A DNA stretch of 64,000 nt, taken from Acidimicrobiia bacterium (GTDB lineage Bacteria > Actinomycetota > Acidimicrobiia > IMCC26256 > PALSA-555). The DNA is taken from assembly GCA_035948415.1 (NCBI GenBank), contig DASZJD010000039.1:3626-67625 (forward strand), given 5' to 3'. Below, one piece after another: positions 14,931 through 61,242 of the stretch (position 1 is its first letter; the number at the start of each line of letters is the position of its first letter). The notes under the pieces are model-generated. The model worked only from the letters and a program-made list of their open reading frames with translations, was not told the origin of the DNA and did not search any database. The position numbers and the translations under genes are program-made.

Positions 14931-14955
14931 CCGTTTCGGAGAGAAATCCGAACGG
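14931..14955 (+). other. AT-richer hairpin in the 175-nt mraZ-rsmH spacer
   Basis: CCGTTTCGGA (14931-14940) pairs with TCCGAACGG (14947-14955) around the loop GAGAAA. This gives 9 bp with one bulged U. GC content is locally much lower than in the surroundings. Confidence 0.35.
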
Positions 14956-15007
14956 ACATCGTCCGCCGGGGGGCTGCCGACGGGCCCAGGGTCGGCGAGG
15001 AGACGTG

Positions 15008-18254: not shown

Positions 18255-18264
18255 CCCCCGTTCC

Positions 18265-23340: not shown

Positions 23341-24452
23341 CGGCCGCCGCCACGCCGACGGCCGTGTTCGCCCTCGTCACCGGCGGCGGCACCGGCGGCC
23401 ACGTGTACCCGGCCCTCGCGGTCGCGGAGGCGCTCGTGGACCGCGGCCACGACCCGGCCGCGATCCGCTTCGTCGGCGGTCGCCGCGGCCTCGAGGTGAC
23501 CGCAGTGCCTGCGGCCGGGTTCCGGCTCGACGCCCTCCCGGGCCGGGGGCTGCGACGGCGCCTCGACGTCGCGGCGTGGCGCGACAACGCCGGGGCCCTC
23601 GTCGGGACCGGCCGCGCCCTCGGCCAGGCGTGGCGGCTCGTGCGGCGCACCCGCCCCCGCGTCGTCCTCGGCGTGGGCGGGTACGCGTCGCTGCCCTGCG
23701 TGGTCAGCGCCCGCCTCGCCGGCGTCCCCACCGTCGTGCACGAGCAGAACGCGGCCCCCGGGCTCACGAACCGGCTCGCGGTGCGCCTCGGCGCGCACCC
23801 CGCGGTGTCGCTGCCCTGCACGCCGCTGCGGGGCGCGGTCCTCACCGGCAACCCGGTGCGGCGCGCGATCACGGTCGTGCAGCGCACCCCGGATCCCACC
23901 CGTCCTCTAGTCCTCGTCTTCGGCGGCAGCCTCGGCGCCCGGCGACTCAACGAGGCTGCGCTCGGCCTCTACGACCGGTGGCGAGACCGCGCCGACGTCG
24001 CCGTGTGCCACGTCAGCGGCCGCCGCGACCACGCCGACTGCGCGCGCGACCTCGCCGCGCTGCGCCGGGCCGGTGACCGCCTCGCGTACGAGCTCGTCGA
24101 GTACGAGGAGCACCTCGAGCGGCGATACGGACAGGCCGCGGTCGCCGTCTGCCGCGCCGGCGCCGTCACCGTCGCCGAGCTCACGGTCACCGGGCTGCCC
24201 GCGATCCTCGTGCCGCTGCCCGGCGCGCCCCACGACCACCAGACCGCAAACGCGGCGGCGCTCGCCGCCGCCGGGGCGGCGACGCTCGTCCCCGACCGCG
24301 ACGCCGACGCGGCCCGACTCGCGGCCGAGCTCGACGCGCTCCTCGGCGCGCCGGACCGGCTCGAGGCCATGAGCCGCGCCGCCCGCGCCCTGGCCCGCCC
24401 CGACGCCGCCGCCCGCGTCGCCGACCTCGTCGAGGCGGTGGCCCGTGCCTGA
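23337..24452 (+). CDS. murG: UDP-GlcNAc:lipid I N-acetylglucosaminyltransferase
   Basis: ATGA overlap with ftsW. GGGTGGHVYPALAVAE glycine loop. Confidence 0.9.
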   Translation: MTAAATPTAVFALVTGGGTGGHVYPALAVAEALVDRGHDPAAIRFVGGRRGLEVTAVPAAGFRLDALPGRGLRRRLDVAAWRDNAGALVGTGRALGQAWRLVRRTRPRVVLGVGGYASLPCVVSARLAGVPTVVHEQNAAPGLTNRLAVRLGAHPAVSLPCTPLRGAVLTGNPVRRAITVVQRTPDPTRPLVLVFGGSLGARRLNEAALGLYDRWRDRADVAVCHVSGRRDHADCARDLAALRRAGDRLAYELVEYEEHLERRYGQAAVAVCRAGAVTVAELTVTGLPAILVPLPGAPHDHQTANAAALAAAGAATLVPDRDADAARLAAELDALLGAPDRLEAMSRAARALARPDAAARVADLVEAVARA

Positions 24453-25827
24453 GCTCGACCTCAGCCGGCCGCGGGTGGTGCACATCGTCGGGATGGGCGG
24501 CGCCGGGATGAGCGCCATCGCCGCGGTGCTGGCTCGGATGGGCCACCGGGTCAGCGGCTCCGACCTCAAGGACTCGCACGCGCTCGACCGGCTGCGGCTG
24601 CTCGGCGTCGACGCCTTCATCGGTCACGCCGCGGCGAACGTCCCCGGCGACGTCGACGCCGTCGTGCACTCGAGCGCCATCCCGCCGACGAACCCCGAGG
24701 TCGTGGCGGCCGCCGACCGGGGCGCACGCGTCCTGCGCCGGGCCGAGGCGCTGCGCGCCCTCGTCGCCACCCGCCGCTCGATCGCGGTGGCGGGCAGCCA
24801 CGGCAAGACGACCACGTCGTCGATGCTGGCCCTCTGCCTGCGCGCGGCGGGCTGGCGGCCGACCTTCCTCATCGGGGGCGACCTCAACGAGGTCGGCTCG
24901 AACGCCGCCTACGACGACGGCGACTGGCTCGTCGTGGAGGCCGACGAGAGCGACGGCACGTTCCTCGAGCTGGCGCCCGAGGCGGCGGTCGTCACGAACG
25001 TCGCCCCCGACCACCTCGACCACTACGGCAGCTTCGAGCGGCTGGTCGACGCCTTCGCCGCCTTCCTCGACCGCGTGCCCGGCGCGCGGGTCGTGTGCGT
25101 CGACGACCCCGTCGCCGCCCGGCTCGCGGCCGAGCGACCGGGCGTGCGCACGTACGGCTTCACCGCCGACGACTACCGGCTCGACGACTACCGCGGCGGC
25201 CGGGCGGGCAGCCGCTTCCGGCTCCACCGCGGCGACGAGCCGCTCGGCCTGCTCGAGCTGCCCGTCCCCGGCCGCCACAACGCGCTGAACGCCACCGGCG
25301 CCGCCGCCGTCGCGCTCGAGCTCGGCGTCCCGTTCGAGGACGTGGCGCGCGCCCTCCGCGGCTTCGGCGGCGTGGCGCGCCGCTTCCAGTTCCGCGGCGA
25401 GATCGACGGCGTCACCATCATCGACGACTACGCCCACAACCCCGGGAAGGTCGCAGCCGTCCTCGAGGCGGCACGCGAGGGCGGCTGGCGGCGGGTCGTC
25501 GCCGTGTTCCAGCCCCACCGCTACACGCGCACGGCGACGCTCTGGCGCGACTACGCCGACGCCTTCCTCGACGCCGACCAGGTGGTCCTCACCGACGTGT
25601 ACGCGGCGGGGGAGGCGCCCCAGCCGGGCGTGTCGGGGCGGCTGGTCCTGCGCGCCGTCCTCGACGCGCACCCCGACACGCCGGTGACCTACCTCCCTCG
25701 CCGGGCCGACGTCGTCGCGCACGCGCTCCACCTGGCGCGCCCCGGCGACGTCCTCGTCACCCTCGGCGCCGGCGACCTGACCACCGTGCCCGACGAGTGG
25801 CTGGCGGCGCGGGAGGCGGACCCGTGA
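24445..25827 (+). CDS. murC: UDP-MurNAc:L-alanine ligase
   Basis: VGMGGAGMSAIA N-terminal Rossmann fold and AVAGSHGKTTTSSM P-loop. Confidence 0.9.
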   Translation: MPELDLSRPRVVHIVGMGGAGMSAIAAVLARMGHRVSGSDLKDSHALDRLRLLGVDAFIGHAAANVPGDVDAVVHSSAIPPTNPEVVAAADRGARVLRRAEALRALVATRRSIAVAGSHGKTTTSSMLALCLRAAGWRPTFLIGGDLNEVGSNAAYDDGDWLVVEADESDGTFLELAPEAAVVTNVAPDHLDHYGSFERLVDAFAAFLDRVPGARVVCVDDPVAARLAAERPGVRTYGFTADDYRLDDYRGGRAGSRFRLHRGDEPLGLLELPVPGRHNALNATGAAAVALELGVPFEDVARALRGFGGVARRFQFRGEIDGVTIIDDYAHNPGKVAAVLEAAREGGWRRVVAVFQPHRYTRTATLWRDYADAFLDADQVVLTDVYAAGEAPQPGVSGRLVLRAVLDAHPDTPVTYLPRRADVVAHALHLARPGDVLVTLGAGDLTTVPDEWLAAREADP

Positions 25828-26765
25828 GCCTCGGTGCGCTCGCCGCCGCGCTCACGTCGGCGCTGCCCCCCGGCGCGGTGCGGCGCGCCGTGCCCGTCGC
25901 CGACCTCACCACCTACCGCCTCGGCGGCCCCGTCGACGTCATGGTCCGCGTCACGACCGACGCCGAGCTCGCGGTCGTGGCCGCCGCGGCCGGGCGCGCC
26001 GACCCGCCGCCGGCGGTGCTCGTCCTCGGGCGGGGCTCGAACCTGCTCGTCGCCGACCGCGGCTTCCCCGGGCTCGGCGTCCTGCTCGCCGGCGACTTCG
26101 AGGCGATCGAGCTCGACCCGGCCGGGGTCGTCCGCGCCGGGGGTGGCACCCCGCTGCCGGTGCTGGCCCGGCGGGCCGCCGCCGCCGGCCTCGGCGGGCT
26201 CGAGTTCTACGTCGGGATCCCCGGCTCGGTCGGCGGCGCGGTGCGCATGAACGCCGGCGGGCACGGCCGCGACACCGCGGCGGTGTTGCGACTGGCGTTC
26301 ACGGTCGACCTCCTCGCCCGGGCCGAAGCGCCGCGCGCCCGGGCCGCCGCCGACCTCGACCTCGGCTACCGGCACTCGGCCCTCGGTCCGAGCGAGGTCG
26401 TCACCAGGGCCGAGTTCACCGCCACCCCCGACGACCCCGACGCGTGCGCGGCCCGCATCGAGGAGGTGGTGCGCTGGCGCCGCCAGCACCAGCCCGGCGG
26501 CGCCAACGCGGGCTCGGTGTTCCGCAACCCGCCGGGCGACTCGGCCGGCCGGCTCATCGACGCCGTCGGCCTCAAGGGCCTCCGGTTCGGCGGCGCGCTC
26601 GTGTCGCCGAAGCACGCCAACTTCTTCCAGGCCGAGCCCGGGGCCACCGCCGACGACGTCGCCATGCTCGTCGCCGAGGTCCAGGCGCGCGTCGACGCCG
26701 CCACCGGCGTTCACCTCGAGCCCGAGCTGCAGCTCGTGGGCTTCGAGCAGGAGGCCCGGCGGTGA
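25824..26765 (+). CDS. murB: UDP-N-acetylenolpyruvoylglucosamine reductase
   Basis: GTGA overlap with murC. FAD/PCMH blocks TTYRLGGP, LGRGSNLLV and GIPGSVGGAVRMNAG. Confidence 0.9.
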   Translation: MSLGALAAALTSALPPGAVRRAVPVADLTTYRLGGPVDVMVRVTTDAELAVVAAAAGRADPPPAVLVLGRGSNLLVADRGFPGLGVLLAGDFEAIELDPAGVVRAGGGTPLPVLARRAAAAGLGGLEFYVGIPGSVGGAVRMNAGGHGRDTAAVLRLAFTVDLLARAEAPRARAAADLDLGYRHSALGPSEVVTRAEFTATPDDPDACAARIEEVVRWRRQHQPGGANAGSVFRNPPGDSAGRLIDAVGLKGLRFGGALVSPKHANFFQAEPGATADDVAMLVAEVQARVDAATGVHLEPELQLVGFEQEARR

Positions 26766-27526
26766 CCGCCGCCACCGGGGTCGCCGGCCTCCGCGTCCGC
26801 ATCGACCCCCGCCTGCGCGCTCGCCGCGCCGCGGTCCGCCGCGACGCCGGCCGGCGCCGCCTCCACCGGCTCCTCCTCGGCGCCGGCGTCGTCGCCACGC
26901 TCACGGTGGCCGCCGCCGTCGCGTGGTCGCCGCTGCTCGCCGTGCACACGATCGTCGTCCGCGGCGCCGGCGCCGACCGGGCCGCGGTCCGCGCCGCGGC
27001 CCGGGTTCGGACGGGCCAGCCCATGCTCCTCGTCAACGCCGGCGGAGTCGCGGCCGCGGTCCGCCGCCTCCCGACGGTGGCCTCGGCGCGCGTCGAGCGC
27101 GACTTCCCGAACACGGTCACGATCACCGTGTCCCGCCGGGTGCCGGTCGCCTGGGCCCCCGCCGGGCCGGGCCGCGCCGCCGTCCTCGACCGGCACGGCG
27201 ACGTCCTGGCCGTCGGGCCCTGGCCGCCGGCCGGCCTCCCCGAGCTGGCCGGGCTGACCCGCGTCCCGGGGCCGGGCGGGCGCCTGCACGCGCCCGCCGC
27301 CGCGGCCGCGGCCGCGCTCGGGCCGTCCCTGCGGGGCCGGGTCACCACCGTGGTCGCCCTGCCCGGCGGGCTCGTCGCCCTCGTGGCCAACGGCCCCCAG
27401 ATCCGCTTCGGGGACGGCACCCAGCTGGCGGCCAAGGCCGAGGCGGCGGCGGCGGTGCTCGCCGCCCTCGTCGCCCCCGCCCGCTACATCGACGTCAGCG
27501 TGCCGAACGCGCCGGTGTCGGGGTAG
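26762..27526 (+). CDS. ftsQ: cell division protein FtsQ/DivIB
   Basis: GTGA overlap with murB. Basic N-terminus, one TM helix and a POTRA-like VHTIVVRGAG...ARVERDFPNTVTITV segment. Canonical position before ftsZ. Confidence 0.75.
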   Translation: MTAATGVAGLRVRIDPRLRARRAAVRRDAGRRRLHRLLLGAGVVATLTVAAAVAWSPLLAVHTIVVRGAGADRAAVRAAARVRTGQPMLLVNAGGVAAAVRRLPTVASARVERDFPNTVTITVSRRVPVAWAPAGPGRAAVLDRHGDVLAVGPWPPAGLPELAGLTRVPGPGGRLHAPAAAAAAALGPSLRGRVTTVVALPGGLVALVANGPQIRFGDGTQLAAKAEAAAAVLAALVAPARYIDVSVPNAPVSG

Positions 27527-27838
27527 GTGGCGATGGGCGACGACGACCGCTTCCCGGGCCCGCCCGGCCCGGCGATGGAGGGCCCGGGGCCCGGTGCGCT
27601 ACCGTCAGGGCCGCTCCCACCGGGGGTGGGTCCGGCTACGGCCCCGCGGCATGCCGACGCGGGCCGTCCCCCCGAGCCGCGAGACGGTGACCCGGAGCGA
27701 GCGGCGGGACCCGGGCAGGTCCCACGATCCCCGTCCCCCGGGGACGACAATGGGGGGTCGGGTTGGCAGGCCAATCGACCGACGACCCCAGGGCACCTCC
27801 GGCGCGTCGCCGGCAACCCGACGGGAAGGACGACCGAC

Positions 27839-28924
27839 ATGCTGGGCGACCCCCAGAACTACCTGGCCGTGATCAAGGTGGTCGGCGTCGGCGGCGGGGG
27901 CTGCAACGCCGTGAACCGCATGATCGACGCCGGCTTGAAGGGCACCGAGTTCGTCGCCGTGAACACCGACGCGCAGGCGCTGCTCGTCAGCGACGCCGAC
28001 GTGAAGCTCGACATCGGCCGCCAGCTCACCCGCGGCCTCGGCGCCGGCTCGGACCCCGACGTCGGCCGGCAGGCCGCCGAGGACCACCGCGACGAGATCG
28101 AAGAGGTGCTGAAGGGCGCCGACATGGTGTTCGTCACCGCCGGTGAGGGCGGTGGGACCGGCACCGGCGGGGCCCCGATCGTCGCCGAGGTCGCCCGCAA
28201 CATGGGGGCGCTCACCATCGCCATCGTCACCCGCCCGTTCGGGTTCGAGGGCCGGCGCCGGGCGGTGCAGGCCGACGCCGGCATCAGCCGGATGCGCGAG
28301 AAGGTCGACACCCTCATCGTGATCCCGAACGACCGCCTCCTCGACGTCGCCGACGAGAAGGCGTCGCTGCTCAGCGCCTTCCGGCTCGCCGACGACGTCC
28401 TCCTGCAGGGCGTCCAGGGCATCACCGACCTCATCACCACCCCCGGCCTCATCAACACCGACTTCGCCGACGTGCGGGTGATCATGCAGAACGCCGGCAC
28501 CGCCCTCATGGGCGTCGGCGAATCGTCGGGCGAGGGCCGGGCCGTCGGCGCGGCGCGCATCGCCATCTCCAGCTCGCTGCTCGAGGCGAGCATCGAGGGC
28601 GCACGCGGGCTGCTCCTCAACGTGGCCGGGCCGTCGGACCTCGGGCTCTTCGAGGTCAACGAGGCGGCCGAGATCGTGAAGGAGACCGCGCACCCCGACG
28701 CCAACATCATCTTCGGGGCCTCGATCGACGACTCGCTCGGGGAGACGATCCGAATCACCGTGATCGCGGCCGGCTTCGACCGCTTCGAGGGCGAGCGCCA
28801 CCCCGAGGGCGGGCGCCGGCGAATCGAGCCGATGGTCGGGATGCCCGTGCGGGACGAGCCCGGCGAGGGCGCAGCCGGCCGGGACGAGGACGACGACTTC
28901 GACGTCCCCGAGTTCCTGCGCTGA
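27839..28924 (+). CDS. ftsZ: cell division GTPase FtsZ
   Basis: ATG 27839 preceded by [20 protein letters not shown], the tubulin signature [10 protein letters not shown], and the C-terminal peptide [11 protein letters not shown]. Confidence 0.95.
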
Positions 28925-29634
28925 TCCACCACCGGCTCGGCCCGGCCCGAATCGCCTGGACCGACCGGCACGGCGGCGTCTCCACCGGCCGCTACTCCAC
29001 CGCCAACCTGTCCACCCGCAGCGCCGACGACCCCGCCGCCGTGCGCGAGAACCGGGCCCGGCTCGCCACCACGCTCGGGCTCGGCGACCCCGACCGCTGG
29101 TGGTGGCTGCACCAGGTGCACGGCGCCGCCGTCCTCGACGCCGACGAGCCGCCCCCGGCCGCGGTGCCGCCCGCCGACGCCGCCGTGACCACCACCGCCG
29201 GCCGGCCGCTGGCCGTCCTCACCGCCGACTGCGCCCCGGTCGTGCTCGCCAGCGACGACGCCGTCGCCGTCGTCCACGCCGGCTGGGTCGGGCTGCTCAC
29301 CGGCGTCGTAGCGGCCGCGGTCGACCGGCTCCGGGCCCGGGGCCGGGGCCCGGTCCGGGCCGCCATCGGCCCCTGCATCCACCCCGACCGGTACGCCTTC
29401 GGGGCCGACGACCTCGGCCGCGTCGTCGCCGCCTACGGGCCCACGGTCGCGGCCCGCACCGCCGACGGCGGGCCCGCCCTCGACCTCCCGGCGGCGGTCC
29501 GGGCCGCCCTCGCCGGGGTCGGGGTCACCGACGTCCACGACGTCGGCGTGTGCACGGCGGCGTCGGCCGACCACTTCTCCTACCGCCGCGACGGCGAGAC
29601 CGGCCGCCAGGCCGTGGTGGCCGTCCTCGGGTGA
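28921..29634 (+). CDS. pgeF: PgeF/YfiH (laccase-domain) purine nucleoside phosphorylase-like protein; start probably CTG 28921
   Basis: Family blocks [19 protein letters not shown] and VHAGW. The first block lies upstream of the first canonical start (GTG 29041). This frame has no ATG, GTG or TTG between the stop at 28144-28146 and 29041. The only CTG is at 28921, overlapping the ftsZ stop (CTGA). Confidence 0.75.
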
Positions 29635-30296
29635 CCGACGTCGCCGCCCGGGTGGCCGCGGTCCGGGCCCGCATCGCCGCGGCCGCCGCCCGGTCCGGTC
29701 GAGACCCGGGCTCGGTGACCCTCGTCGCCGCCAGCAAGACCGTGCCGGCCGACCGGGTGGCCGAGGCCGTCGCGGCCGGGGTGCGCGACGTGGGCGAGAA
29801 CCGGGCCCAGGAGCTGCTGGCGAAGGCGCCGGCGCTGGCGGCGGCCCCACCCCGCTGGCACTTCGTCGGCCCCCTCCAGCGCAACAAGGTGAAGGCCCTC
29901 GCCCCGTGGGTGACGTGGTGGCAGACGGTGGACCGGGTCGAGCTCGGGACGGTCATCGCCCGGCACGCGCCGGCGGCCCAGGTCCTCGTCGAGGTGAACC
30001 TGGGCCGCGAGCCGCAGAAGGCCGGCTGCGCGCCCGAGGCCACCGGGGGTCTGGTCGACGCCCTCCGCGGGGTCGGGCTCGTCGTCGCCGGGCTCATGAC
30101 CGTGCCCCCGCTCGGCGACGACCCCCGCCGGTGGTTCGCCCGGCTGCGAGACCTCGCCGCCGCGGCGACGCTGCAGGAGCTGTCGATGGGCATGACCGAC
30201 GACTTCGAGGTGGCGGTTGAGGAGGGCGCGACGATGGTGCGGGTGGGCCGGGCCCTCTTCGGTGACCGTCCCCCGTCACAGGCGCCCCAGCAGTAA
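29631..30296 (+). CDS. yggS: YggS/YlmE PLP-binding homeostasis protein
   Basis: GTGA overlap with pgeF. VTLVAASKT (PLP lysine) and HFVGPLQRNK. Confidence 0.85.
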   Translation: MTDVAARVAAVRARIAAAAARSGRDPGSVTLVAASKTVPADRVAEAVAAGVRDVGENRAQELLAKAPALAAAPPRWHFVGPLQRNKVKALAPWVTWWQTVDRVELGTVIARHAPAAQVLVEVNLGREPQKAGCAPEATGGLVDALRGVGLVVAGLMTVPPLGDDPRRWFARLRDLAAAATLQELSMGMTDDFEVAVEEGATMVRVGRALFGDRPPSQAPQQ

Positions 30297-30339
30297 CCTT
30301 CGACCCGGGAGGGCGTGCCGCCCCGGCACGTGACGCGTA

Positions 30340-30963
30340 TTGGCCTCGCTCTGGCGCCGAGCCATGGTCTACCTGGGACTCCAGGACGACGACGAGCAGT
30401 ACGGCTACGACGCGTACGGCTACGACGAGTACGGCGAGTACGGCGACGAGGGCCGGCGCGGGCCGCACGACGCCGGGCCCAACGACCCCAACCACCGCCG
30501 GGTCCCCGAGTACGCCGGCGGCCCCGCCTACCCGGAGTCACGGGACGCGCGACCGGTCCGCGACCCGCCGGCACCGATGGCACGCCCCGAGTACGGCGAG
30601 CCGACCGTGCGCGCGGTGCCCCGCGACGAGCCGCCGTCGGGCGTCTCGGTCCCGCGCCCGCCGGTCGTGCGGAGCGTGCCGACGTCGGCGGCCCGGGTCC
30701 ACGTGGTCGAGCCGCTGAACTTCAACGACGCCCAGGAGATCGGGGACCGCGTCAAGGGCAACCAGGCCGTCATCCTCAACCTGCAGGGCAGCAACCGGGA
30801 GCTGCAGCGCCGCCTCATCGACTTCTCGAGCGGCCTCGCCTACGCCGTCGGCGGGTCGATGTCGCGCGTCGCCGACTCCGTCTTCCTGCTGACGCCGATG
30901 AATGTGCAGCTCTCCGAAGAGGAGAAGGAGCGACTCGAGGCCCGCGGCCTCTACCGACGCTGA
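30340..30963 (+). CDS. sepF: cell division protein SepF
   Basis: TTG start giving the amphipathic N-terminus MASLWRRAMVYLGL, an acidic Tyr/Gly-rich linker, and the C-terminal core FNDAQEIGDRVKGNQAVILNL...LIDFSSGLAYAVGGS. Confidence 0.85.
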   Translation: MASLWRRAMVYLGLQDDDEQYGYDAYGYDEYGEYGDEGRRGPHDAGPNDPNHRRVPEYAGGPAYPESRDARPVRDPPAPMARPEYGEPTVRAVPRDEPPSGVSVPRPPVVRSVPTSAARVHVVEPLNFNDAQEIGDRVKGNQAVILNLQGSNRELQRRLIDFSSGLAYAVGGSMSRVADSVFLLTPMNVQLSEEEKERLEARGLYRR

Positions 30964-30969
30964 GCACCA

Positions 30970-31218
30970 GTGGGATTCGTCTGCGCGCTGCTCATCGTCT
31001 TCATCGTCGTGCTGTTCCTCCGCGCCGTGCTCTCGTGGTTCCCCGAGTCGCAGCGCCCCGGCACCGCGACCGCGCAGATCTCCCGGGTGCTCAACGACCT
31101 GACCGAGTGGGCGCTGCGCCCGCTCCGCCGCGTGATCCCGCCCGCCGGCATGTTCGACCTCTCGTTCCTCGTGCTGGTGTTCTTCCTGATCTTCCTCCGC
31201 ACCTTCCTCTGCGGCTGA
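30970..31218 (+). CDS. yggT: YggT/YlmG family membrane protein
   Basis: 82 aa with two TM helices and the LRAVLSWFP motif. Canonical position after sepF. Confidence 0.8.
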   Translation: MGFVCALLIVFIVVLFLRAVLSWFPESQRPGTATAQISRVLNDLTEWALRPLRRVIPPAGMFDLSFLVLVFFLIFLRTFLCG

Positions 31219-31264
31219 TCGTCGCATCGCCCCGGCGGGACCATCTCGCTACCATGGAACGCCT

Positions 31265-32239
31265 ATGGCTTCCATGGACGTGACCCCCCAGGAGTTGCGC
31301 GACGTCGAGATCCGTGAGGCGTGGCGCGGCTACCACCGCGACGACGTCGACGAGCTGCTTGAGCGGGCGGCCGCCACGATCGAGCACCTGCAGGACGAAG
31401 TTCGCCAGGAGAAGCTCCGGGCCGCGCAGGCGCCGACCCCGGCGCCGGCGCCGGCACGCACGCCGGCGGTGACGCCGCCGCCGGTGCCCGAGCGCCGCCC
31501 GCCGGGCGTCGACACCGACGTCATCCAGCGGACGCTCGTCCTCGCGCAGAAGGCCGCCGACGAGGCGGTCGCCGAGGCGCGCGCAGCCGCCCAGCAGATG
31601 CTGGCCGAGTCGGAGGCCAAGGCGCAGTCGCTGGTCGGCGAGGCCGAGGCGAACGCGCGTCGGATCGCCGACACCGAGCGCCGCCGCCTCGAGGAGGAGA
31701 TCGGACAGCTCACGGCGGCGCGCGAGACCTTGAACGCCGACGTGGACGCCCTCGAGCGCTTCGAGTCCGAGTACAAGGAGCGCCTCCGCCAGGCCATCCG
31801 CGCCGAGCTCGCCGTCCTCGATTCGCCCAACCCGCCGACCGGTGAGCGGCCGTCCCTCCACGCGGTGCACGTGCCCGCGCCGCGGTCCTGGTCGGCGTCC
31901 TCGGGCTACGCCCCGTCCGCCGAGGGGACGGGGTCGCCGGCGGCGCTGGCGTCGGGCGGAGTCCCGACGGTCAGCATCCAGGCCGTCTCCGCCCACGAGC
32001 AGTGGGAGGAGTCGAGCGGCGAGTGGGGCGAGACGCCCGCCGCCGCGGTCGTCGACGACGCCGAGGAGCCCGACCTGTCGGAGCGCAGCGAGAGCCTCGA
32101 CGACGACGCCTTCTTCGCGTCGCTGCGCGAGGCCGTGCGCGACGACACGCCCCTCGGCTCGCGGGAGCCGACGTCGGAGCACTTCCTCGACACCGAGGAG
32201 CCCGACGACCAGCGCAAGCTGTTCCGCCGGCGGCGCTGA
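31265..32239 (+). CDS. divIVA: DivIVA-domain protein (Wag31-like)
   Basis: VTPQELRDVEIREAWRGYHRDDVDELL DivIVA N-terminal domain followed by long coiled coils. Confidence 0.85.
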   Translation: MASMDVTPQELRDVEIREAWRGYHRDDVDELLERAAATIEHLQDEVRQEKLRAAQAPTPAPAPARTPAVTPPPVPERRPPGVDTDVIQRTLVLAQKAADEAVAEARAAAQQMLAESEAKAQSLVGEAEANARRIADTERRRLEEEIGQLTAARETLNADVDALERFESEYKERLRQAIRAELAVLDSPNPPTGERPSLHAVHVPAPRSWSASSGYAPSAEGTGSPAALASGGVPTVSIQAVSAHEQWEESSGEWGETPAAAVVDDAEEPDLSERSESLDDDAFFASLREAVRDDTPLGSREPTSEHFLDTEEPDDQRKLFRRRR

Positions 32240-32242
32240 GGG

Positions 32243-35200
32243 TCAGACCCGGTCCACGCGCACCCGCACCGGGTCGCCGTCGACCGCGAGCGTCGCCGCG
32301 CCGTCGAGCCCGTCGTCGCCGACGTCGGTGACCCGCCAGTCGGTGGCGAGCACCTCCTCCTGGATCCAGTCCGCGTGCCGCCGCGCCGCCGCGGCGACGC
32401 GGCCGTCGGCGCCGAGCTCCACGCGCACCCGGTCGGCGAGGTCGAGGCCGAGCGCCTTGCGGTGCTCGTTCAGGGCGCGGACGAGCTCGCGGGCCAGGCC
32501 CTCGGAGCGCAGCTCGTCGTCGAGGGCGGTGTCGAGCGCGACCGCCACGCCGCCGTCCTCGGCCAGGGCCAGCGACTCGTGGGTCCGGGCCCGCACGTCG
32601 ACGTCGTCGGGTCCGAGCTCGACCGCCTGGCCGTCGACCGTGACGACCACCCGCCCGTCGGTCTCGAGCGCCCGACGGAGGGCGGCGCCGTCGGCGGCCG
32701 CCAGCACGGCCTGGAGCGGGCGCACGAGCGGCCCGAGGCGAGGCCCGAGCGTCCGGAACCGGGGCGCCACCGAGTAGTCGAGGAGGCCCTCGAGGTCGCG
32801 GACGGGCTCGAGGGCCTTCACGTTCAGCTCGTCGGCGACCTGGGCGCGGAGCTCGTCGCCGAGGGTCAGGCCCGCCGGGAACAGGACCAGGGCCCGCCGC
32901 AGCGGCTGGCGCACCTTGATCCCAGCCTCGTTGCGGGCCGCGAGCCCGAGGGTCACCAGCCGGCGGGCGAAGGCCATCTCGGCCTCGAGGGCCGGGTCGA
33001 CGGCGCCGGGATCGGCGGCGGGCCAGTCGGCCAGGTGCACCGACACGCCGCTTTGGGTGACGGTGCGGTGCAGCTCGTCGGCGAGGAAGGGGCAGAACGG
33101 GGCCAGCAGCAGGCTGATCGTCGTCAGGCACTCGTGGAGCGTCGCCGGCGCGCCCGGGTCGGCCGACTTCCAGAAGCGCGGCCGGGAGCGGCGCACGTAC
33201 CAGTTCGAGCAGTCGTCGACCAGCCGGTCGAGGGCCTGCGCGGCGCGCAAGGCGTCGAAGCCCTCGAGCGCGTCGGTGACCTCGCCGACGGTCGCGTGGA
33301 GGCGGGACCGGATCCAGCGGTCGAGCACGTGCGGGGACCGAACCGGCGGCCCGGGCTCCCAGCCGTCGAGGTTCGCGTAGGTGACGAAGAACGACGCCGT
33401 GTTCCACAGCGTCAGCAGGAACCGGCGGGTCGACTCGTCGATCACCTGCTCGTCGACCCGTCGGCTCGTCCACGGTGAGCCGGCCGAGAAGAAGTACCAG
33501 CGGAGCGCGTCGGCGCCCCGGCTCCGCAGGATGGTCCACGGGTCGAGGACGTTCCCGCGCGACTTCGACATCTTCTGGCCGTCGCGGTCGACGATGTGGG
33601 CCAGGCACACGACGTGCCGGTACGGCGCCCGGCCGAACACCAGCGTGTTGACGGCCAGGAGCGAGTAGAACCAGCCCCGGGTCTGGTCGATGGCCTCGCA
33701 GACGAAGTCGGCGGGGAAGCGACGCTCGAACCGGTCGGCGTGCTCGAACGGGTAGTGCCACTGCGACGCCGGCATCGCGCCCGAGTCGAACCAGGCGTCG
33801 AGCACCGCCTCGACGCGGCGGGCCCGAGCGCCGCACGTGGGGCACGTGATCGCGACCTCGTCGACGTCCGGCCGGTGCAGGTCGAGCCCGGCCAGGTCGC
33901 GGCCGGCCAGCTCGGCGAGCTCGGCGACCGACCCGACGCAGGTGTCGTGCCCCTCCTCGCAGCGCCAGAAGGGGAGCGGCGTCCCCCAGAAGCGGTCGCG
34001 TGACAACGCCCAGTCGACGTTGTGCTCGAGCCAGTCGCCGAAGCGGCCGTGCTTGATGTGCTCGGGGTGCCACCCGACGGTCTCGTTCTCGCGCAGCAGC
34101 TCGGCGCGGTGCTCGGACGTGCGGGCGAACCACGTCGGCTTGGCCCAGTAGATGAGGGGCGTCGCGCAGCGCCAGCAGTGCGGGTACGAGTGCTCGTAGT
34201 CGACGACCCGCTCCAGCCGGCCGCGCGCCGCCAGGTCGTCGATGATGAGCGGGTCGGCGTCCTTCACGAAGCGCCCCCGGTACGGGGGCACGGAGTGGTC
34301 GAAGCGGGCGGCGGCGTCGACGGGGTTCAGCATCGGCAGGCCCTCGGCCTCGCCGACCTCGCGGTCGACCTCGCCGAAGGCCGGCGCCAGGTGCACGACG
34401 CCGGAGCCGTCCTCGACGGTCACGAAGTCGGCGGCGACCACGCGCGCCGCGTCAGCGGGGAGGGGCAGGACGTCGAACGGCCGCTCGTAGTGGCGTCCGA
34501 CCAGCGTGGCGACGGGCACGTCGGCGACCACCTCGGCGTCGTCGCCGAGCACCGGCGCGACCCGTTCCGCCGCCAGCACGAGGTCGCGCCGGCCGTCCTG
34601 CGCGCGCACGCGCGCGTACCGCACGTCGGGTCCCACCGCGGCGGCGACGTTCGACACCAGCGTCCACGGCGTGGTCGTCCACACCAGCAGGTCGACGTCG
34701 TCGTCGACGAGCGGGAAGCGCACGTACACGGACGGCTCGACCACGTCCTCGTACCCGAGCGCCACCTCGTGGCTCGACAGGGCGGTGCCGCAGCGCGCGC
34801 AGTAGGGCACGACCTTGAACCCCTCGTAGACGAGCCCGGCGTCCCAGAGCTGGCGAAGGTGCCACCAGACGCTCTCGATGTACTCGTTCGTCAACGTCCA
34901 GTAGGCGTTCGCGGTGTCGAGCCACATCCCGATCCGGGTCGTGAGCGCGGACCAGTCCTCGACGTATCGGTGCACCGACTCGCGGCAGCGCTGGTTGAAC
35001 GCTGCGACCCCGAACTCCTCGATCTCGGGCTTGCCCGAGAACCCGAGCTCCCGCTCCACCTCGAGCTCGACCGGGAGCCCGTGGCAGTCCCAGCCGCCCT
35101 TCCGGGCCACGTAGCGCCCGCGCATGGTGTGGAAGCGGGGATAGAGGTCCTTGAAGGAGCGGGCCCAGACGTGGTGGAGCCCGGGCTGGCCGTTGGCGGT

Positions 35201-35347
35201 CGGCGGTCCCTCGTAGAACACCCACTCCGGGGCCCCGTCGCGGCGACGAAGGCTCTCGCCGAACACGTCGTCGTCGGCCCACCGCCGCAGCACGCGCTCC
35301 TCGAGCGCGACGAGGTCGACCTCGCGAGGAAGTGACTCGAACGGCAT
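32243..35347 (-). CDS. ileS: isoleucyl-tRNA synthetase (about 1034 aa)
   Basis: Last 1034 aa of track ORF 32243..38152, from ATG (reverse complement of 35345-35347). HIGH-type PPTANGQPGLHHV and KMSKS (GQKMSKSRGN). Confidence 0.95.
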   Translation of the reverse strand: MPFESLPREVDLVALEERVLRRWADDDVFGESLRRRDGAPEWVFYEGPPTANGQPGLHHVWARSFKDLYPRFHTMRGRYVARKGGWDCHGLPVELEVERELGFSGKPEIEEFGVAAFNQRCRESVHRYVEDWSALTTRIGMWLDTANAYWTLTNEYIESVWWHLRQLWDAGLVYEGFKVVPYCARCGTALSSHEVALGYEDVVEPSVYVRFPLVDDDVDLLVWTTTPWTLVSNVAAAVGPDVRYARVRAQDGRRDLVLAAERVAPVLGDDAEVVADVPVATLVGRHYERPFDVLPLPADAARVVAADFVTVEDGSGVVHLAPAFGEVDREVGEAEGLPMLNPVDAAARFDHSVPPYRGRFVKDADPLIIDDLAARGRLERVVDYEHSYPHCWRCATPLIYWAKPTWFARTSEHRAELLRENETVGWHPEHIKHGRFGDWLEHNVDWALSRDRFWGTPLPFWRCEEGHDTCVGSVAELAELAGRDLAGLDLHRPDVDEVAITCPTCGARARRVEAVLDAWFDSGAMPASQWHYPFEHADRFERRFPADFVCEAIDQTRGWFYSLLAVNTLVFGRAPYRHVVCLAHIVDRDGQKMSKSRGNVLDPWTILRSRGADALRWYFFSAGSPWTSRRVDEQVIDESTRRFLLTLWNTASFFVTYANLDGWEPGPPVRSPHVLDRWIRSRLHATVGEVTDALEGFDALRAAQALDRLVDDCSNWYVRRSRPRFWKSADPGAPATLHECLTTISLLLAPFCPFLADELHRTVTQSGVSVHLADWPAADPGAVDPALEAEMAFARRLVTLGLAARNEAGIKVRQPLRRALVLFPAGLTLGDELRAQVADELNVKALEPVRDLEGLLDYSVAPRFRTLGPRLGPLVRPLQAVLAAADGAALRRALETDGRVVVTVDGQAVELGPDDVDVRARTHESLALAEDGGVAVALDTALDDELRSEGLARELVRALNEHRKALGLDLADRVRVELGADGRVAAAARRHADWIQEEVLATDWRVTDVGDDGLDGAATLAVDGDPVRVRVDRV
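32246..32275 (+). terminator. hairpin 7 nt after the divIVA stop, embedded in the ileS 3' coding end
   Basis: GACCCGGT (32246-32253) pairs perfectly with ACCGGGTC (32268-32275) around a 14-nt loop. No U tract. Confidence 0.3.
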
Positions 35348-35400
35348 CGTCCGGAGCGTATCGTGAGCCGGTTCGCGGGCCGCCCGAGAATGGAGCCGCG

Positions 35401-35754
35401 GTGAGCGACGTCGACGACCTCTACGCGTTCGACGGCAGCACGGTCGTGCTCGCCGTGCACGTGCAGCCCCGCGCAGGGCGGAGCGCGGTGCTCGGCCGCC
35501 ACGGCAACGCGCTGCGCCTCCGCGTCGCGGCGCCGCCGGTCGACGACCGGGCCAACGAGGCCGCACGCGCGCTGCTCGCCGAGCAGTTCGGCGTGAAGCC
35601 GGCCGACGTGCAGCTGGTCGCGGGCGAGCGGTCGCGCCTGAAGCGCTTCCGCCTCGCCAACGTCGACCACGACGAGTTCGTCGTGCGGCTGCGACGCGCC
35701 GTCCGCGAGGCCGACCAGGCCGCCGGGCCGCGCTCGCGCCACCACGTCGACTGA
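35401..35754 (+). CDS. DUF167 (YggU-like) protein
   Basis: GTG 35401 inside track ORF 35332..35754. VLAVHVQPRAGRSAV...LRLRVAAPPVDDRANEAARALLAEQFGVKPADVQLVAGERSRLKRFRL matches the DUF167 pattern. Confidence 0.75.
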   Translation: MSDVDDLYAFDGSTVVLAVHVQPRAGRSAVLGRHGNALRLRVAAPPVDDRANEAARALLAEQFGVKPADVQLVAGERSRLKRFRLANVDHDEFVVRLRRAVREADQAAGPRSRHHVD

Positions 35755-35854
35755 CCGTCCGGAGCGGCGGCGCCGGCCGTCGAGGGCGGCGACAGCGTGG
35801 CGTGCGGCACGCACTACCATCGCCCGCTCGCACATTCGCCGAAAGAGAGGCTGC

Positions 35855-36655
35855 ATGCCCGGGGCAGGCAAGAAGGCGACACCGCGCCGCGCCGCGACCG
35901 GGGGTCCCGCGGGCGGGGGGCGGGCCCGATCCGGCTCGAGCCGGGGCAACCCGGGCAAGCCGGCCGCGGCCAAGAAGCCCCCGGCCCGGAAGGCGGCGCC
36001 GAAGCCGCCGGCGGCCAAGACGGCGAAGCGGACGCCGGCGAAGGCCGTCCCGACCAAGAAGCCGGCGGCGAAGAAGGCCCCGGCCCCGCGGCCGGCCGCG
36101 AAGCGACTCCCGGCCAAGCCGGCGGCGGCGCCGAAGGCGACGACCAAGGCCGCCGCGCCCGCCCGCGCCCCGACCGCGACCCGTCCGGCCGCGCCCGGGG
36201 CGGGGGAGACAAGGTCCCGGGGCGGCAAGAAGACGGTCATCTGCCCGCTCTCGGGCTTCGAGGTGACGCCCGGGCCCGCCAACCTGAGCCCGAAGACGCT
36301 CGAGCGGCTCCGCCAGAAGCTGGTCGACGAGAAGAACCGGCTGCACCACCAGGCCGAGGAGCTCACGGCCGAGGCCGAGCAGCTGGCCCGGGAGCGGGAG
36401 GCCGGTGACACCCAGTTCGACGAGGAGTCGGGGGAGGGGGACACCGTCAACATCGAGCGGGAGCGCGACCTGCTCCTGTCGGCGACGGCCCGGCAGGTCG
36501 TGGAGGAGATCGACGACGCCCTCGAGCGGATGAAGCGCAACCGGTACGGCGTCTGTAAGCCCGCGGGGCGGAAGATCGCGCTCGAGCGGCTCGAGGCGAT
36601 CCCCTGGGCCCAGGTGTGCGTCGATTGCAAGGCGCGTGCCGAGCGGCGACGCTGA
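35855..36655 (+). CDS. DksA/TraR-family protein with an N-terminal Lys/Ala/Pro-rich histone-like extension
   Basis: Residues 1-126 are PAAKK/AKKP-type low complexity. The C-terminus has a DksA coiled coil (GDTVNIERERDLL...) and a partial zinc ribbon (GVCKPAG...CVDCK). RBS aaagagagg upstream. Confidence 0.75.
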   Translation: MPGAGKKATPRRAATGGPAGGGRARSGSSRGNPGKPAAAKKPPARKAAPKPPAAKTAKRTPAKAVPTKKPAAKKAPAPRPAAKRLPAKPAAAPKATTKAAAPARAPTATRPAAPGAGETRSRGGKKTVICPLSGFEVTPGPANLSPKTLERLRQKLVDEKNRLHHQAEELTAEAEQLAREREAGDTQFDEESGEGDTVNIERERDLLLSATARQVVEEIDDALERMKRNRYGVCKPAGRKIALERLEAIPWAQVCVDCKARAERRR

Positions 36656-37145
36656 TCCCGTCGCGGCGCGCCTCCGCGGGCGCCGCGGGCTGGTGGCCGG
36701 AATCGTCATCACGGTGGTGGCGCTCGACCAGGCCACGAAGGCCTGGGCGGCGGCGACGCTGCCGGGGTCGCCGGTGTCGATCGTCGGCTCGACCGTCGAG
36801 CTGCGCCTCGCCCGCAACACGGGGAGCGCGTTCAGCCTCTTCCAGACGATGACGCCGCTCCTCGTCATCCTCGTCATCGGCGTCGCCGTCGTCCTGCTCC
36901 GGGCCGTTCGCCGCGCCCACGAGCGCACCGTGCTCGTGGCCCTGGCGCTCGTGCTCGGCGGCGCCTTCGGGAACGTGGCCGACCGCCTCTTCCGGTCGCC
37001 GGGCTGGCTGCGCGGCGGGGTCGTCGACTTCGTGCGCCTGGACGGGTGGCCGACCTTCAACGTCGCCGACTCGGCGATCACCATCGGCGCCGTCCTCCTG
37101 GTGTGGTGGAGCCTCTTCGGCGGGCGGGCGGGCGCGGCGGCGTGA
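36636..37145 (+). CDS. lspA: lipoprotein signal peptidase II
   Basis: NTGSAFS and FNVADSAI motifs, four TM segments. GTG 36636 (alternative GTG 36693). Confidence 0.85.
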   Translation: MPSGDADPVAARLRGRRGLVAGIVITVVALDQATKAWAAATLPGSPVSIVGSTVELRLARNTGSAFSLFQTMTPLLVILVIGVAVVLLRAVRRAHERTVLVALALVLGGAFGNVADRLFRSPGWLRGGVVDFVRLDGWPTFNVADSAITIGAVLLVWWSLFGGRAGAAA

Positions 37146-38107
37146 ACGCCGAGCCCGACGCCATCACGGTGCCGGCCGAGCTGGCCGGCGACCGGGTCGA
37201 CCGGGCCGTAGCCCGGCTGACCGGCTGGAGCCGGGCCGAGGTCCAAGCCCTCCTCGCCGACGGCGCCGTCCTCGTGAACGGGCGGGCGCCGGCCAAGAGC
37301 CAGCGGGTCGCCGCCGGTGCCGTCGTCGAGCTGCTCGGCGGCCCGGAACCCCCGGGCCCACCGGGTCCGGAGGCGGTCCCGGTCGACGTCCGGGCCGCGG
37401 ACGAGGACGTCATCGTCGTGCACAAGCCGGCCGGCCTGGTCGTGCACCCGGGCGCCGGGCACGCCCACGGGACCCTCGTCCACGGGCTGCTGGCGCGGTA
37501 CCCGGAGCTCGCCGCCGTCGGCGACCCGTACCGACCCGGCATCGTCCACCGGCTGGACCGGGACACGAGCGGCCTGCTCGTCGTGGCGCGCTCCCCGTCG
37601 GCGTTCGAGGCCCTCGTGGCGGCGCTCGCGGCCCGCCGGGTCGAGCGCCGCTACCTGGCCCTGGTCCGGGGCGTGCCCGACGCCCCCGAGGCGCTGATCG
37701 ACGCCCCGATCGGCCGGGCCGAGGGCCGGCGGACCCGGATGGCGGTGCGCGCCGAGGGGCGCCCGGCCCGCACCGGCTACGAGCTCCTCGGCACCGACCC
37801 CGCCCGGCGGGTCGCCCTCCTCGAGTGCCGGCTCGAGACCGGCCGCACCCACCAGATCCGGGTGCACCTGGCCGCCATCGGCCACCCGGTGGTGGGGGAC
37901 CGGGCCTACGGGGGCGGGGGGCCGGGCGGGCCCCGGCCCTTCCTGCACGCCCACCGGCTGGCGTTCTCGCATCCCCGTGGCGGGGCGCGGCAGGCCTTCG
38001 AGGCGGCCCTGCCCGCAGAGCTGGCGGGGGTGCTGGCCGAGGTGGGGGTGGAGCCGCCCGCCCTGGAGGACCGACCAGCCCGAGCCGGCGGCGTCGAGGC
38101 GGGGTGA
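37142..38107 (+). CDS. rluD: RluA-family 23S rRNA pseudouridine synthase
   Basis: GTGA overlap with lspA. S4-like N-terminus and the catalytic HRLDRDTSGLLVVA motif. Confidence 0.85.
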   Translation: MNAEPDAITVPAELAGDRVDRAVARLTGWSRAEVQALLADGAVLVNGRAPAKSQRVAAGAVVELLGGPEPPGPPGPEAVPVDVRAADEDVIVVHKPAGLVVHPGAGHAHGTLVHGLLARYPELAAVGDPYRPGIVHRLDRDTSGLLVVARSPSAFEALVAALAARRVERRYLALVRGVPDAPEALIDAPIGRAEGRRTRMAVRAEGRPARTGYELLGTDPARRVALLECRLETGRTHQIRVHLAAIGHPVVGDRAYGGGGPGGPRPFLHAHRLAFSHPRGGARQAFEAALPAELAGVLAEVGVEPPALEDRPARAGGVEAG

Positions 38108-38261
38108 CTGTTCGACGTCGCCGGCGCCGGGCCGTCGGAACGGGCTGGACACCGATCAGCGGGGCGTGCTGACCCTCCACACGGTACGACGGGCCGTCTC
38201 AGCGTCGGCTCCGCGCCAGGCCAAGATTCGGTAAAGGTCCAGGCGCCCACGCGCCGACGCG

Positions 38262-59621: not shown

Positions 59622-60374
59622 ATGAGCGGACATTCGAAGTGGCACTCGATCAAGCACAAGAAGGGCGCGGCCGACAGCGCGCGCGGGAAGCTGTTCGCCA
59701 AGCTCATCCGCCAGATCGAGGTCGCCGCCCGGGAGGGCGGGGCCGACCCGGACGCCAACCCGACGCTGCGCACGATGGTCGGCAAGGCGCGCGACGCGTC
59801 GGTGCCGGTCGACACGATCGACCGGGCGATCAAGCGCGGCACCGGCCAGCTCGAGGGCGTCCGCTACGAGCAGTGCACCTACGAGGGCTACGCGCCGAAC
59901 GGCGTCGCCGTGCTCGTCGAGTGCCTCACCGCCAACCGCAACCGCACCGGCGCCGAGGTCAAGAACGTGTTCACCCGCCTCGGCGGCTCGCTCGCCGAGC
60001 CCGGCGCGGTGTCGTGGCAGTTCGAGCGCAAGGGCGTGATCGTCCTCGAGAAGGCGGCCGCCAGCGAGGACGACCTCATGCTGGCCGCCCTCGACGCCGG
60101 CGCCGAGGACATCGTCGACCAGGGCGACACCTGGCAGGTGACGACCGGGCCCGCCGACCTGCATCGGGTTCGGGACGGGCTCGACGCCGCCGGCATCCCG
60201 GTCACGAGCGCCGACCTGCTGATGCTCCCCACCACGACGGTCCCGCTCACCGACGAGGCCGGAGCCCGGTCCGTCCTGCGGGTGATCGACGCCCTCGAGG
60301 AGCAGGACGACGTGCAGACGGTGAACGCCAACTTCGACATCCCCGACGACGTGCTCCAGGCGGTGATGGCATGA
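59622..60374 (+). CDS. yebC: YebC/PmpR-family transcriptional regulator
   Basis: MSGHSKWHSIKHKKG N-terminus; 250 aa. Confidence 0.9.
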   Translation: MSGHSKWHSIKHKKGAADSARGKLFAKLIRQIEVAAREGGADPDANPTLRTMVGKARDASVPVDTIDRAIKRGTGQLEGVRYEQCTYEGYAPNGVAVLVECLTANRNRTGAEVKNVFTRLGGSLAEPGAVSWQFERKGVIVLEKAAASEDDLMLAALDAGAEDIVDQGDTWQVTTGPADLHRVRDGLDAAGIPVTSADLLMLPTTTVPLTDEAGARSVLRVIDALEEQDDVQTVNANFDIPDDVLQAVMA

Positions 60375-60832
60375 GACCCAAGGTCGGCGAGGCCGCTCCC
60401 GACTTCCGGCTCCCCGGCGTCGAGGCCGGCGCTCGGCGCGAGTTCACGCTCTCCGAGTACCGGGGCCGCAAGGTCGTGCTCGCGTTCTACCCCGGCGACT
60501 TCACCCCCGGCTGAACGCGGCAGCTGCGCTCGTACCGCGACGACTTCGCCGCGTTCGAGCGGGCGGGTGCGGTCGTGCTCGCCGTCTCCCCCCAGGACGT
60601 GGACAGCCACGAGCGGTGGGCCGCCCAGGAGGGCTTCGGGTTCGCGCTGCTCGCCGACCCGGACCGGGTCGCGATCCACGCCTACGGCGTGGGCGCGCCC
60701 GTCGTGGGCGTGCGCCGGTCGATCTTCCTGATCGATACTGGCGGCGTGGTCCGTTGGCGCTACAGCGGCACGGTCCGGGCCATCTTCAAGCGCCCGGAGC
60801 AGCTGACCCGCATCCTGGCCGGGATGTCCTGA
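60371..60832 (+). CDS. BCP-type peroxiredoxin with an in-frame TGA (60512-60514) at the peroxidatic-Cys codon: candidate selenoprotein, or a pseudogene
   Basis: One frame reads [13 protein letters not shown][TGA][11 protein letters not shown]...[15 protein letters not shown]...FALLADPD...[11 protein letters not shown]. There is no frameshift. ATGA overlap with yebC and TGATG overlap with the next gene. Confidence 0.6.
60512..60557 (+). other. hairpin starting at the in-frame UGA (candidate bacterial SECIS)
   Basis: GAACGCGGC (60513-60521) pairs perfectly with GCCGCGTTC (60548-60556), with a U-G closing pair at 60512/60557. An inner GCG (60526-60528)/CGC (60536-60538) stem closes the apical loop CUCGUAC. 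Confidence 0.4.
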
Positions 60833-61242
60833 TGGACCTCCCCGAGGCGCTCGACTTCGTGCGGGCCAACCACCGGGCCGTGCTCGCCACCGGCCGGGCC
60901 GACGGTCGCCCCCAGCTGTCGCCCGTCGTCGCGGCGGTGGACGACGACGACCACGTCGTCGTCAGCACGCGGGAGACCGCGATGAAGACGCACAACGTGC
61001 GCCGCGAGCCTTCGGTGTCGCTCTGCGTGCTCTCGGACGCCTTCTTCGGCGCGTGGGCGCAGCTCGACGGGACCGCGACGGTCGTCTCGCTGCCGGCGGC
61101 GATGGAGCCCCTCGTCGACTACTACCGCCGGATCGCCGGCGAGCACCCCGACTGGGACGCGTACCGCGCCGCGATGCAGCGCGAGCAGCGAGTGCTGCTG
61201 CGAATCGCGGTGACGCACGCCGGGCCCACCCGGTCCGGGTGA
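60832..61242 (+). CDS. PPOX-class (pyridoxamine 5'-phosphate oxidase fold) probable F420-dependent enzyme
   Basis: [27 protein letters not shown]...[25 protein letters not shown] pattern. ATG overlaps the upstream stop (TGATG). Confidence 0.75.

Follow-up and report, generated by a model that had tools for sequence, protein, structure and literature searches.

A peroxiredoxin gene on the forward strand, at positions 60371–60832 of a 64,000-nucleotide (nt) stretch of DNA from an Acidimicrobiia bacterium (NCBI assembly GCA_035948415.1, contig DASZJD010000039.1; the whole stretch is termed the window), is interrupted by a single TGA codon at its catalytic position. Comparison with related genes indicates that it is an intact peroxiredoxin of the BCP/PrxQ type, in which the UGA at 60512–60514 is very probably read as selenocysteine (Sec) at the peroxidatic site; we place the probability of this reading at about 0.9. 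The frame that follows the TGA is translated and under purifying selection, and the RNA downstream of it forms pairings that co-vary and are specific to the TGA forms of the gene. From these patterns we infer that the residue at the UGA is Sec and that SelB binds the downstream structure. The assignment rests on comparative evidence, because the decoding genes selA, selB, selC and selD could not be linked to these genomes.

The peroxiredoxin and its catalytic codon

The gene extends from ATG 60371 to a final TGA stop at 60830–60832 and has 153 codons, the Sec codon included. Its placement among the BCP/PrxQ-like members of the AhpC/TSA family draws on Pfam, on relatives in the PDB and on an alignment with 20 homologues. 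One frame is kept throughout; the TGA, codon 48, is the sole interruption and is followed by 105 sense codons with no frameshift. With Cys substituted at the TGA codon, the product matches the AhpC-TSA profile (PF00578) with an E-value of 7.1e-35 over profile positions 1–123 of 124. The TGA aligns with the column of the peroxidatic Cys, a column in which at least 90% of the 20 full-length homologues have Cys, and it completes the PxxxTxxC/U motif of the family, here P41-G-D-F-T45-P-G-[TGA]48; related genes have a homologous TGA at this point. In the same alignment the catalytic Thr45 and Arg116 are invariant and Pro41 is kept. The closest solved structures are BCP/PrxQ proteins and the 1-Cys AhpE of Mycobacterium tuberculosis, with E-values from 5e-20 to 1e-16. 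No NCBIfam model reaches its cut-off for the protein, and an exact look-up of the full-length sequence with X or C at residue 48 returned no match in the protein collection.

An earlier sequence-only reading of the window had described a full-length, single-frame protein with TGA at the peroxidatic Cys codon, no frameshift, and GTG 60575 as the first in-frame start 3′ of the TGA, and in all of these points it is borne out. It had also reported Leu at the position five residues beyond the peroxidatic one (Cp+5), where 2-Cys relatives have their resolving Cys. That residue is in fact Arg53, the Leu being at Cp+4, but the underlying observation that no resolving Cys is present holds good, as the protein contains no Cys over its full length.

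Conservation of the TGA among assemblies and relatives

The protein encoded by yebC, the gene immediately upstream, is found in identical form on 11 public contigs, six of which (L001–L006) were compared with the window. These are the contig DASZEW010000112.1 of an NCBI metagenome-assembled genome (MAG; GCA_035940415.1) and five metagenome contigs of the Joint Genome Institute (JGI). They are 99.7–99.9% identical to the window and, since each differs from it by 6–35 mismatches, they are independent assemblies; all six have the TGA. Since A is found at 60514 in the NCBI MAG contig and in all five metagenome assemblies, a base-call error is ruled out.

Relatives were collected in a scan of one genome per species, which yielded 80 loci. 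The homologous codon is TGA in 27 of these and TGC or TGT in the others, and the Sec-type sequences range from about 80% down to about 60% in protein identity. There are 32 distinct Sec-type sequences (that of the window species and 31 further ones), to be set against 49 distinct TGC/TGT sequences. All relatives come from MAGs labelled Acidimicrobiia or Actinomycetota, or more loosely labelled, and the Sec clade is found in high-G+C MAGs, for the most part of soil or freshwater origin. With few exceptions the Sec and Cys forms share the gene order pdxT–yebC–prx, and they are thus positional orthologues in which Cys and Sec alternate. In genomes with the Sec form, an ordinary BCP paralogue of the 2-Cys type is also present at another site (L044, L050 and L067). 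At two loci, L034 (2684 and 3142) and L035 (2671 and 3136), yebC is followed by a tandem pair, in which a 2-Cys form (TGC) precedes a Sec form (TGA); the arrangement resembles the outcome of a tandem duplication after which one of the copies was converted.

Public annotation treats the gene in two ways. JGI records split it into two ‘peroxiredoxin’ genes of 47 and 85 amino acids (aa), for example at 8574–8717 and 8778–9035 of L002, and selenoproteome surveys and annotation pipelines will consequently miss it. The NCBI record has a single 153-codon call across the TGA (10750–11211 of L001), and this call may represent an annotated selenoprotein or else the extent of a pseudogene. The N-terminal 47-aa fragment forms a cluster of its own in the protein collection, with seven near-identical sequences.

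Two conserved stem-loops downstream of the UGA

Bacterial UGA codons that specify Sec are followed, within the coding region, by a selenocysteine insertion sequence (SECIS). Two adjacent stem-loops are conserved downstream of the UGA in the Sec-type genes. Stem-loop 1 (60528–60560, forward strand), which is defined by pairing, covariation and RNAalifold, starts 13 nt after the UGA. Its outer helix pairs GCUCG (60528–60532) with CGAGC (60556–60560), and its inner helix (60535–60540 with 60546–60551) closes an apical loop CGACU at 60541–60545, which gives a spacing from UGA to loop of 26 nt (60515–60540). Pairing is possible in 96.3% of cells of the alignment; none of 500 shuffles reached the observed score, and controls in which the helices were slid gave 19–40%. 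Compensatory changes are found at three pairs, each in a different lineage: from G-C to C-G in L046 and L072, from C-G to U-A in L012 and L013, and from C-G to U-A in L014. All 11 base pairs (bp) can form in 26 of 32 Sec sequences against one of 49 Cys sequences, and the mean minimum free energy (MFE) of the region is −17.8 kcal/mol in the former and −8.8 kcal/mol in the latter. The outer helix is also predicted independently by RNAalifold, as are four pairs of the six in the inner helix. The helices are supplied by Ser-Tyr-Arg-Asp-Asp and Phe-Glu codons.

Stem-loop 2 (60564–60581, forward strand) lies directly 3′ of stem-loop 1 and begins 49 nt after the UGA. A 7-bp stem (60564–60570 with 60575–60581) closes the tetraloop GGUC at 60571–60574, and the codon GTG 60575 falls within the 3′ arm. 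Here 95.5% of cells pair, compensatory changes again occur at three pairs, and the observed score was reached by none of 500 shuffles. The GGUC loop is present in all 32 distinct Sec sequences and in seven of 49 Cys sequences; the complete stem-loop is found in 22 of 33 Sec sequences versus one of 49 Cys sequences, with MFE values of −12.3 and −6.0 kcal/mol, respectively. Nine hairpins with a GGUC loop exist in the window, and only that of the peroxiredoxin follows an in-frame TGA in a frame that looks coding. A similar hairpin, with a 7-bp stem and the loop GGUCU, forms the SECIS of fdhA in three actinobacterial metagenome contigs (L103, L136 and L207), where it is placed 11 nt after the UGA. 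These fdhA genes, at about 879 of L103, about 10692 of L136 and 1–160 (reverse strand) of L207, adjoin selA, selB and tRNA-Sec; gene calls in JGI and the European Nucleotide Archive truncate all three at the Sec codon.

The loci L010, L026 and L046 each fold singly into the two-hairpin structure. The window sequence folds into the outer helix of stem-loop 1 together with stem-loop 2 when the 13 nt after the UGA are removed. When the UGA is in the A site of the ribosome, the mRNA channel would enclose at least part of these 13 nt.

The sequence-only reading had located the SECIS elsewhere, in a 9-bp pairing between 60513–60521 and 60548–60556 (60513–60556, forward strand). That pairing is indeed perfect and is part of the window's MFE fold, but it is not conserved in orthologues. 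Its stability in the window is not beyond chance (z-score −1.76; matched or bettered by 12 of 200 shuffles), and across the 32 distinct Sec sequences 67% of cells pair, a level that 480 of 500 shuffles attain as well. The GCG/CGC stem inside it, which was thought to present the loop CUCGUAC, consists of 3 bp only; half of the sequences cannot form the first of these pairs, and no covariation is seen. Both were rejected as the conserved element, which lies 3′ of the 9-bp pairing and partly competes with it; that pairing is a lineage-specific alternative to stem-loop 1. The alignment of orthologues that had been suggested supports the selenocysteine reading, with TGA at the same codon in many genomes, TGC or TGT in others, and TGA-specific covariation in hairpins other than the one proposed.

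The published model of the bacterial SECIS (bSECIS) specifies a loop of 3–9 nt, an upper stem of 4–16 bp, a distance of 16–37 nt from UGA to loop and an MFE of −7.5 kcal/mol or lower, with a G within the first two loop positions that is mostly followed by G or U (PMC13188914). Stem-loop 1 lies within these constraints, having a 5-nt loop, a 6-bp upper stem, a spacing of 26 nt, an MFE of −17.8 kcal/mol and an invariant G at loop position 2. Stem-loop 2 lies within those on loop, stem and energy (4 nt, 7 bp and −12.3 kcal/mol), and GGUC is the common loop pattern. As regards the hairpin that SelB would bind, position speaks for stem-loop 1, and the loop, by its constancy and its sequence, for stem-loop 2. 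One tentative possibility, which we consider rather less probable than its negation, is a composite two-hairpin SECIS in which the GGUC hairpin at 60564–60581 binds SelB and stem-loop 1, whose structure is conserved while its sequence varies, acts as a folded-out spacer that brings GGUC within reach; if stem-loop 1 is counted in this manner, the spacing of stem-loop 2 becomes 13 + 3 + 7 = 23 nt. Such a composite, if true, would be an architecture outside the current consensus model for bacteria.

In a neighbour-joining tree computed without the U/C column, Sec forms group in a single large clade, within which a small subclade of Cys forms is nested; the exception is L046, which is placed among the 2-Cys forms. 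The genes at 3133 of L046 and 3133 of L072 have near-identical SECIS regions, Ser at Cp+5 and both hairpins, with the apex of stem-loop 1 built differently and the same GGUC, although the 2-Cys forms closest to them in the tree have neither hairpin. Either a separate change from Cys to Sec or recombination of a SECIS-bearing segment is suggested by this pattern, and the two-hairpin SECIS may accordingly have arisen twice or have spread by recombination.

Translation past the TGA and selection on the gene

Every Sec-type gene has exactly one in-frame stop, which is followed by 104–107 sense codons. Ratios of non-synonymous to synonymous substitution (dN/dS) were derived from a codon alignment. 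After the SECIS zone dN/dS is 0.35 in the Sec group, compared with 0.48 in the uninterrupted Cys homologues; the upstream value is 0.23. Conservation at the protein level is strongest in the 20 codons between the TGA and GTG 60575, where dN is 0.10. All 33 Sec-type proteins are devoid of Cys from codon −40 to the end, and Cp+5 is Arg or Ser in the Sec forms.

The imprint of the RNA structure is visible at synonymous sites, which are frozen in the Sec group alone, at codons +5, +6, +7, +14, +15 and +19 to +21 relative to the TGA. CGC at +5, TCG at +6, TTC-GAG at +14/+15 and GCG-GTC-GTG at +19 to +21 show little or no variation; about half of the other Gln/Glu codons in the same Sec sequences end in A. 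The rate dS in the Sec group is 0.45 in the SECIS zone versus 0.83–0.93 in the flanks, and in the Cys group it is 0.74 versus 0.73–0.83.

Proposed mechanism and decoding machinery

In the proposed mechanism, the ribosome would reach the UGA and mRNA structure just downstream would recruit SelB with Sec-tRNA(Sec), out-competing termination by release factor 2. The recruiting structure would be stem-loop 1 (60528–60560) and then stem-loop 2 (60564–60581) with its GGUC loop. By analogy with peroxiredoxin chemistry, the selenolate would reduce peroxide and be converted to selenenic acid. A polypeptide that lacks Cys has no resolving residue, so an external thiol reductant would recycle the enzyme directly, which would make it a ‘1-Sec’ enzyme analogous to the 1-Cys peroxiredoxins.

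The tblastn queries in the search for the machinery were the SelD of E. coli, a pair of actinobacterial SelA proteins, one SelB and a further SelD; they gave no match in the window or in the 86 peroxiredoxin loci. A further route led through SelA: metagenome contigs were scanned for a high-G+C version of the motif GDKLLGGPQ, which gave 120 SelA loci that were then clustered. Neither the tetranucleotide profile nor shared genes discriminated Acidimicrobiia-like loci among them, and the SelA groups chosen as candidates for the selA of this lineage were discarded when protein searches showed them to belong to Streptosporangiaceae/Microbispora and Nocardioides. No long contig carrying a Sec peroxiredoxin had a match to the SelA motif. 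Actinomarina, a member of the class Acidimicrobiia, has been reported with selA, selB, selC and selD (bioRxiv 10.64898/2026.04.03.716425). Support for the machinery is thus indirect, and comes from the Sec-specific, SECIS-like structure with its SelB-type loop and from this report at the level of the class.

Several observations weigh against decoding of the UGA as Sec by means of the two stem-loops. No selA, selB or selD was found in the 64-kb window or in 86 peroxiredoxin loci (about 0.5 Mb, the rest of the genomes lying outside the search), and tRNA-Sec was found neither by ARAGORN in the window and 35 Sec loci nor by Rfam in the window. The loop of stem-loop 1 contains GA and not the commoner GG or GU, and that of stem-loop 2 is 56 nt from the UGA, outside the published range of 16–37 nt. 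The window's own inner helix in stem-loop 1 has a C-C mismatch at 60536:60550, which leaves 4 bp plus the mismatch, and its MFE fold favours the competing 9-bp stem. In RNA as rich in G+C as this, the folding energies of single sequences do not differ significantly from those of shuffled ones. Finally, no Rfam family matches the element, although bacterial SECIS elements are poorly represented in that database; at permissive thresholds, region 60480–60620 gave only chance matches to microRNA and small nucleolar RNA families.

Alternative explanations

One alternative is that an ordinary BCP gene has been inactivated, by a sequencing error or by a nonsense mutation that recently turned TGC into TGA. 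In a genome of 75% G+C most stop codons are TGA, which is one base change away from TGC, and the JGI gene callers do see two fragments of 47 and 85 aa. Against this, six independent assemblies of the species share the TGA, as do 27 other genome loci; the frame beyond it is intact and under purifying selection, and a Sec-specific, co-varying RNA structure follows. A pseudogene or artefact is hence refuted in practice, and the proposal of the sequence-only reading that the gene encodes a selenocysteine peroxiredoxin survives this comparison. Scarcely more credible is the notion that the gene has two products, a 47-residue peptide ending at the UGA and an 85-residue fragment restarted at GTG 60575, with the hairpins serving termination–reinitiation or regulation. 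The GTG is in frame and its location within the 3′ arm of stem-loop 2 would suit such an arrangement, but neither fragment would contain the peroxidatic residue, and to our knowledge no peroxiredoxin works as two chains without the catalytic residue. Moreover, the 20 codons that a restart would leave untranslated are the most strongly conserved at the protein level, and the putative start is GTA in two of 33 sequences.

A more serious competitor, though still an improbable one, accepts that the UGA is recoded and disputes the identity of the residue. Cys could be inserted by a tRNA-Sec-like tRNA(Cys) acting with SelB, and Cys-inserting systems of this kind have been described; alternatively, Trp or Cys could be incorporated by near-cognate suppression stimulated by the RNA structure. 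In favour of this, no Sec machinery was found in the window and the peroxiredoxin loci searched, and what the comparison of sequences proves is that the UGA is read through and that an RNA signal exists, not which residue is inserted. Only Cys or Sec would give activity at the peroxidatic position, however, and a lineage in need of Cys could simply use TGC, as its relatives do. The Sec forms have also consistently lost every other Cys, which fits selenium chemistry without a resolving thiol, and their GGUC loop matches that of the SelB-type fdhA SECIS hairpins. Insertion of Sec remains the preferred reading of the UGA.

Neighbouring genes and other features of the window

The peroxiredoxin gene overlaps both of its neighbours, in agreement with the sequence-only reading. 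Upstream, yebC (59622–60374, forward strand; TACO1/YebC family by Pfam) shares an ATGA at 60371–60374 with the peroxiredoxin start. Downstream, a gene of the PNPOx_N family (60832–61242, forward strand; PF01243; 136 aa) shares a TGATG at 60830–60834 with its stop. The PNPOx_N gene adjoins the peroxiredoxin in only some Sec loci and some Cys loci, and it is consequently not Sec-specific.

The window has a G+C content of 75%. A search of it for other selenoprotein genes, based on in-frame TGA codons flanked on either side by coding signal, turned up only ordinary adjacent genes in the same frame, as at TGA 8530–8532 between a membrane protein gene and a MerR-type gene. The region 14500–32300 holds the dcw cluster of cell division and cell wall genes (rsmH, ftsI, murE, murF, murC, ftsZ, sepF, yggT and a divIVA-like gene), recognised from translations only, and there are no selenium-related genes among them. 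On the reverse strand, 32243–38155 is a stop-free frame of 1,970 codons with ileS in its 3′ half and an Arg/Pro-rich, non-genic-looking 5′ half, which illustrates how spurious long open reading frames originate at such base composition. Within the ileS coding region ARAGORN calls a ‘tRNA-Pro (cgg)’ at 34977–35065 (reverse strand), 89 nt long and with its anticodon at position 29; Rfam finds no tRNA anywhere in the window, and the call is most likely a false positive.

Comparison with known systems

Sec-containing peroxiredoxins (COG1225/PF00578, with the motif TxxU) have been an established family since 2001–2005 (PMC13188914, PMC1088965, PMC5029168), and the window gene therefore adds a member to it. 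The Sargasso Sea data contained 43 such sequences, and in a 2016 survey 78 sequenced bacteria had one (PMC1088965, PMC5029168, PMC13188914). The clade described here shares with the family the AhpC/TSA fold, the PxxxTxxU motif, Sec in place of the peroxidatic Cys, widespread Cys homologues and a stem-loop in the coding region after the UGA. Going by published descriptions, it is set apart by its occurrence in high-G+C MAGs of Acidimicrobiia/Actinomycetota, by the lack of any Cys and by two conserved hairpins instead of one.

For PrxU of Eubacterium acidaminophilum, Sec at the peroxidatic position was shown experimentally (Sohling et al. 2001, as cited in PMC13188914). The window protein belongs to a different subfamily from a different phylum: it scores 69.3 bits against the PrxU model (NF040737, peroxi_PrxU), for which the cut-off is 270, and has 153 residues where the model has a length of 233. 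It resembles the Cys-containing BCP/PrxQ proteins (E. coli BCP, Xanthomonas BCP, Sulfolobus Bcp and Burkholderia 5enu) in length and in the catalytic Pro, Thr and Arg, but would differ from them in having Sec at the catalytic position, and it reaches 68.9 bits with PRK09437, where the cut-off is 140. Like the 1-Cys AhpE of M. tuberculosis (Rv2238c), it is without a resolving Cys.

What the gene most likely signifies is that this lineage uses selenocysteine. It adds to a high-G+C actinobacterial lineage a selenoprotein that is widespread and mis-called, with 32 distinct sequences from this species and 27 other loci. It also provides a natural series of Sec/Cys exchanges at one syntenic locus, in the course of which RNA structure was gained and the resolving Cys lost; the series should be useful for studying how a SECIS evolves from pre-existing coding sequence.

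The only unusual feature is the tandem-hairpin SECIS, a possible variant of the known type. The SECIS of E. coli fdhF is a 40-nt hairpin whose 17-nt upper stem-loop lies 11 nt after the UGA and includes a bulged U17 and, in the loop, G23/U24 (PMC8659212). The peroxiredoxin likewise has a stem-loop in the coding region 3′ of the UGA, but the hairpin with the GGUC loop starts at 49 nt and not at 11, whereas the nearer one, at 13 nt, has a CGACU loop without GU and no evident bulged U. The fdhA SECIS elements of the actinobacterial contigs L103, L136 and L207 keep the classical E. coli arrangement and have a GGUC(U) loop like that of stem-loop 2. Should both hairpins prove functional, their tandem layout would take the bacterial SECIS model beyond this arrangement.

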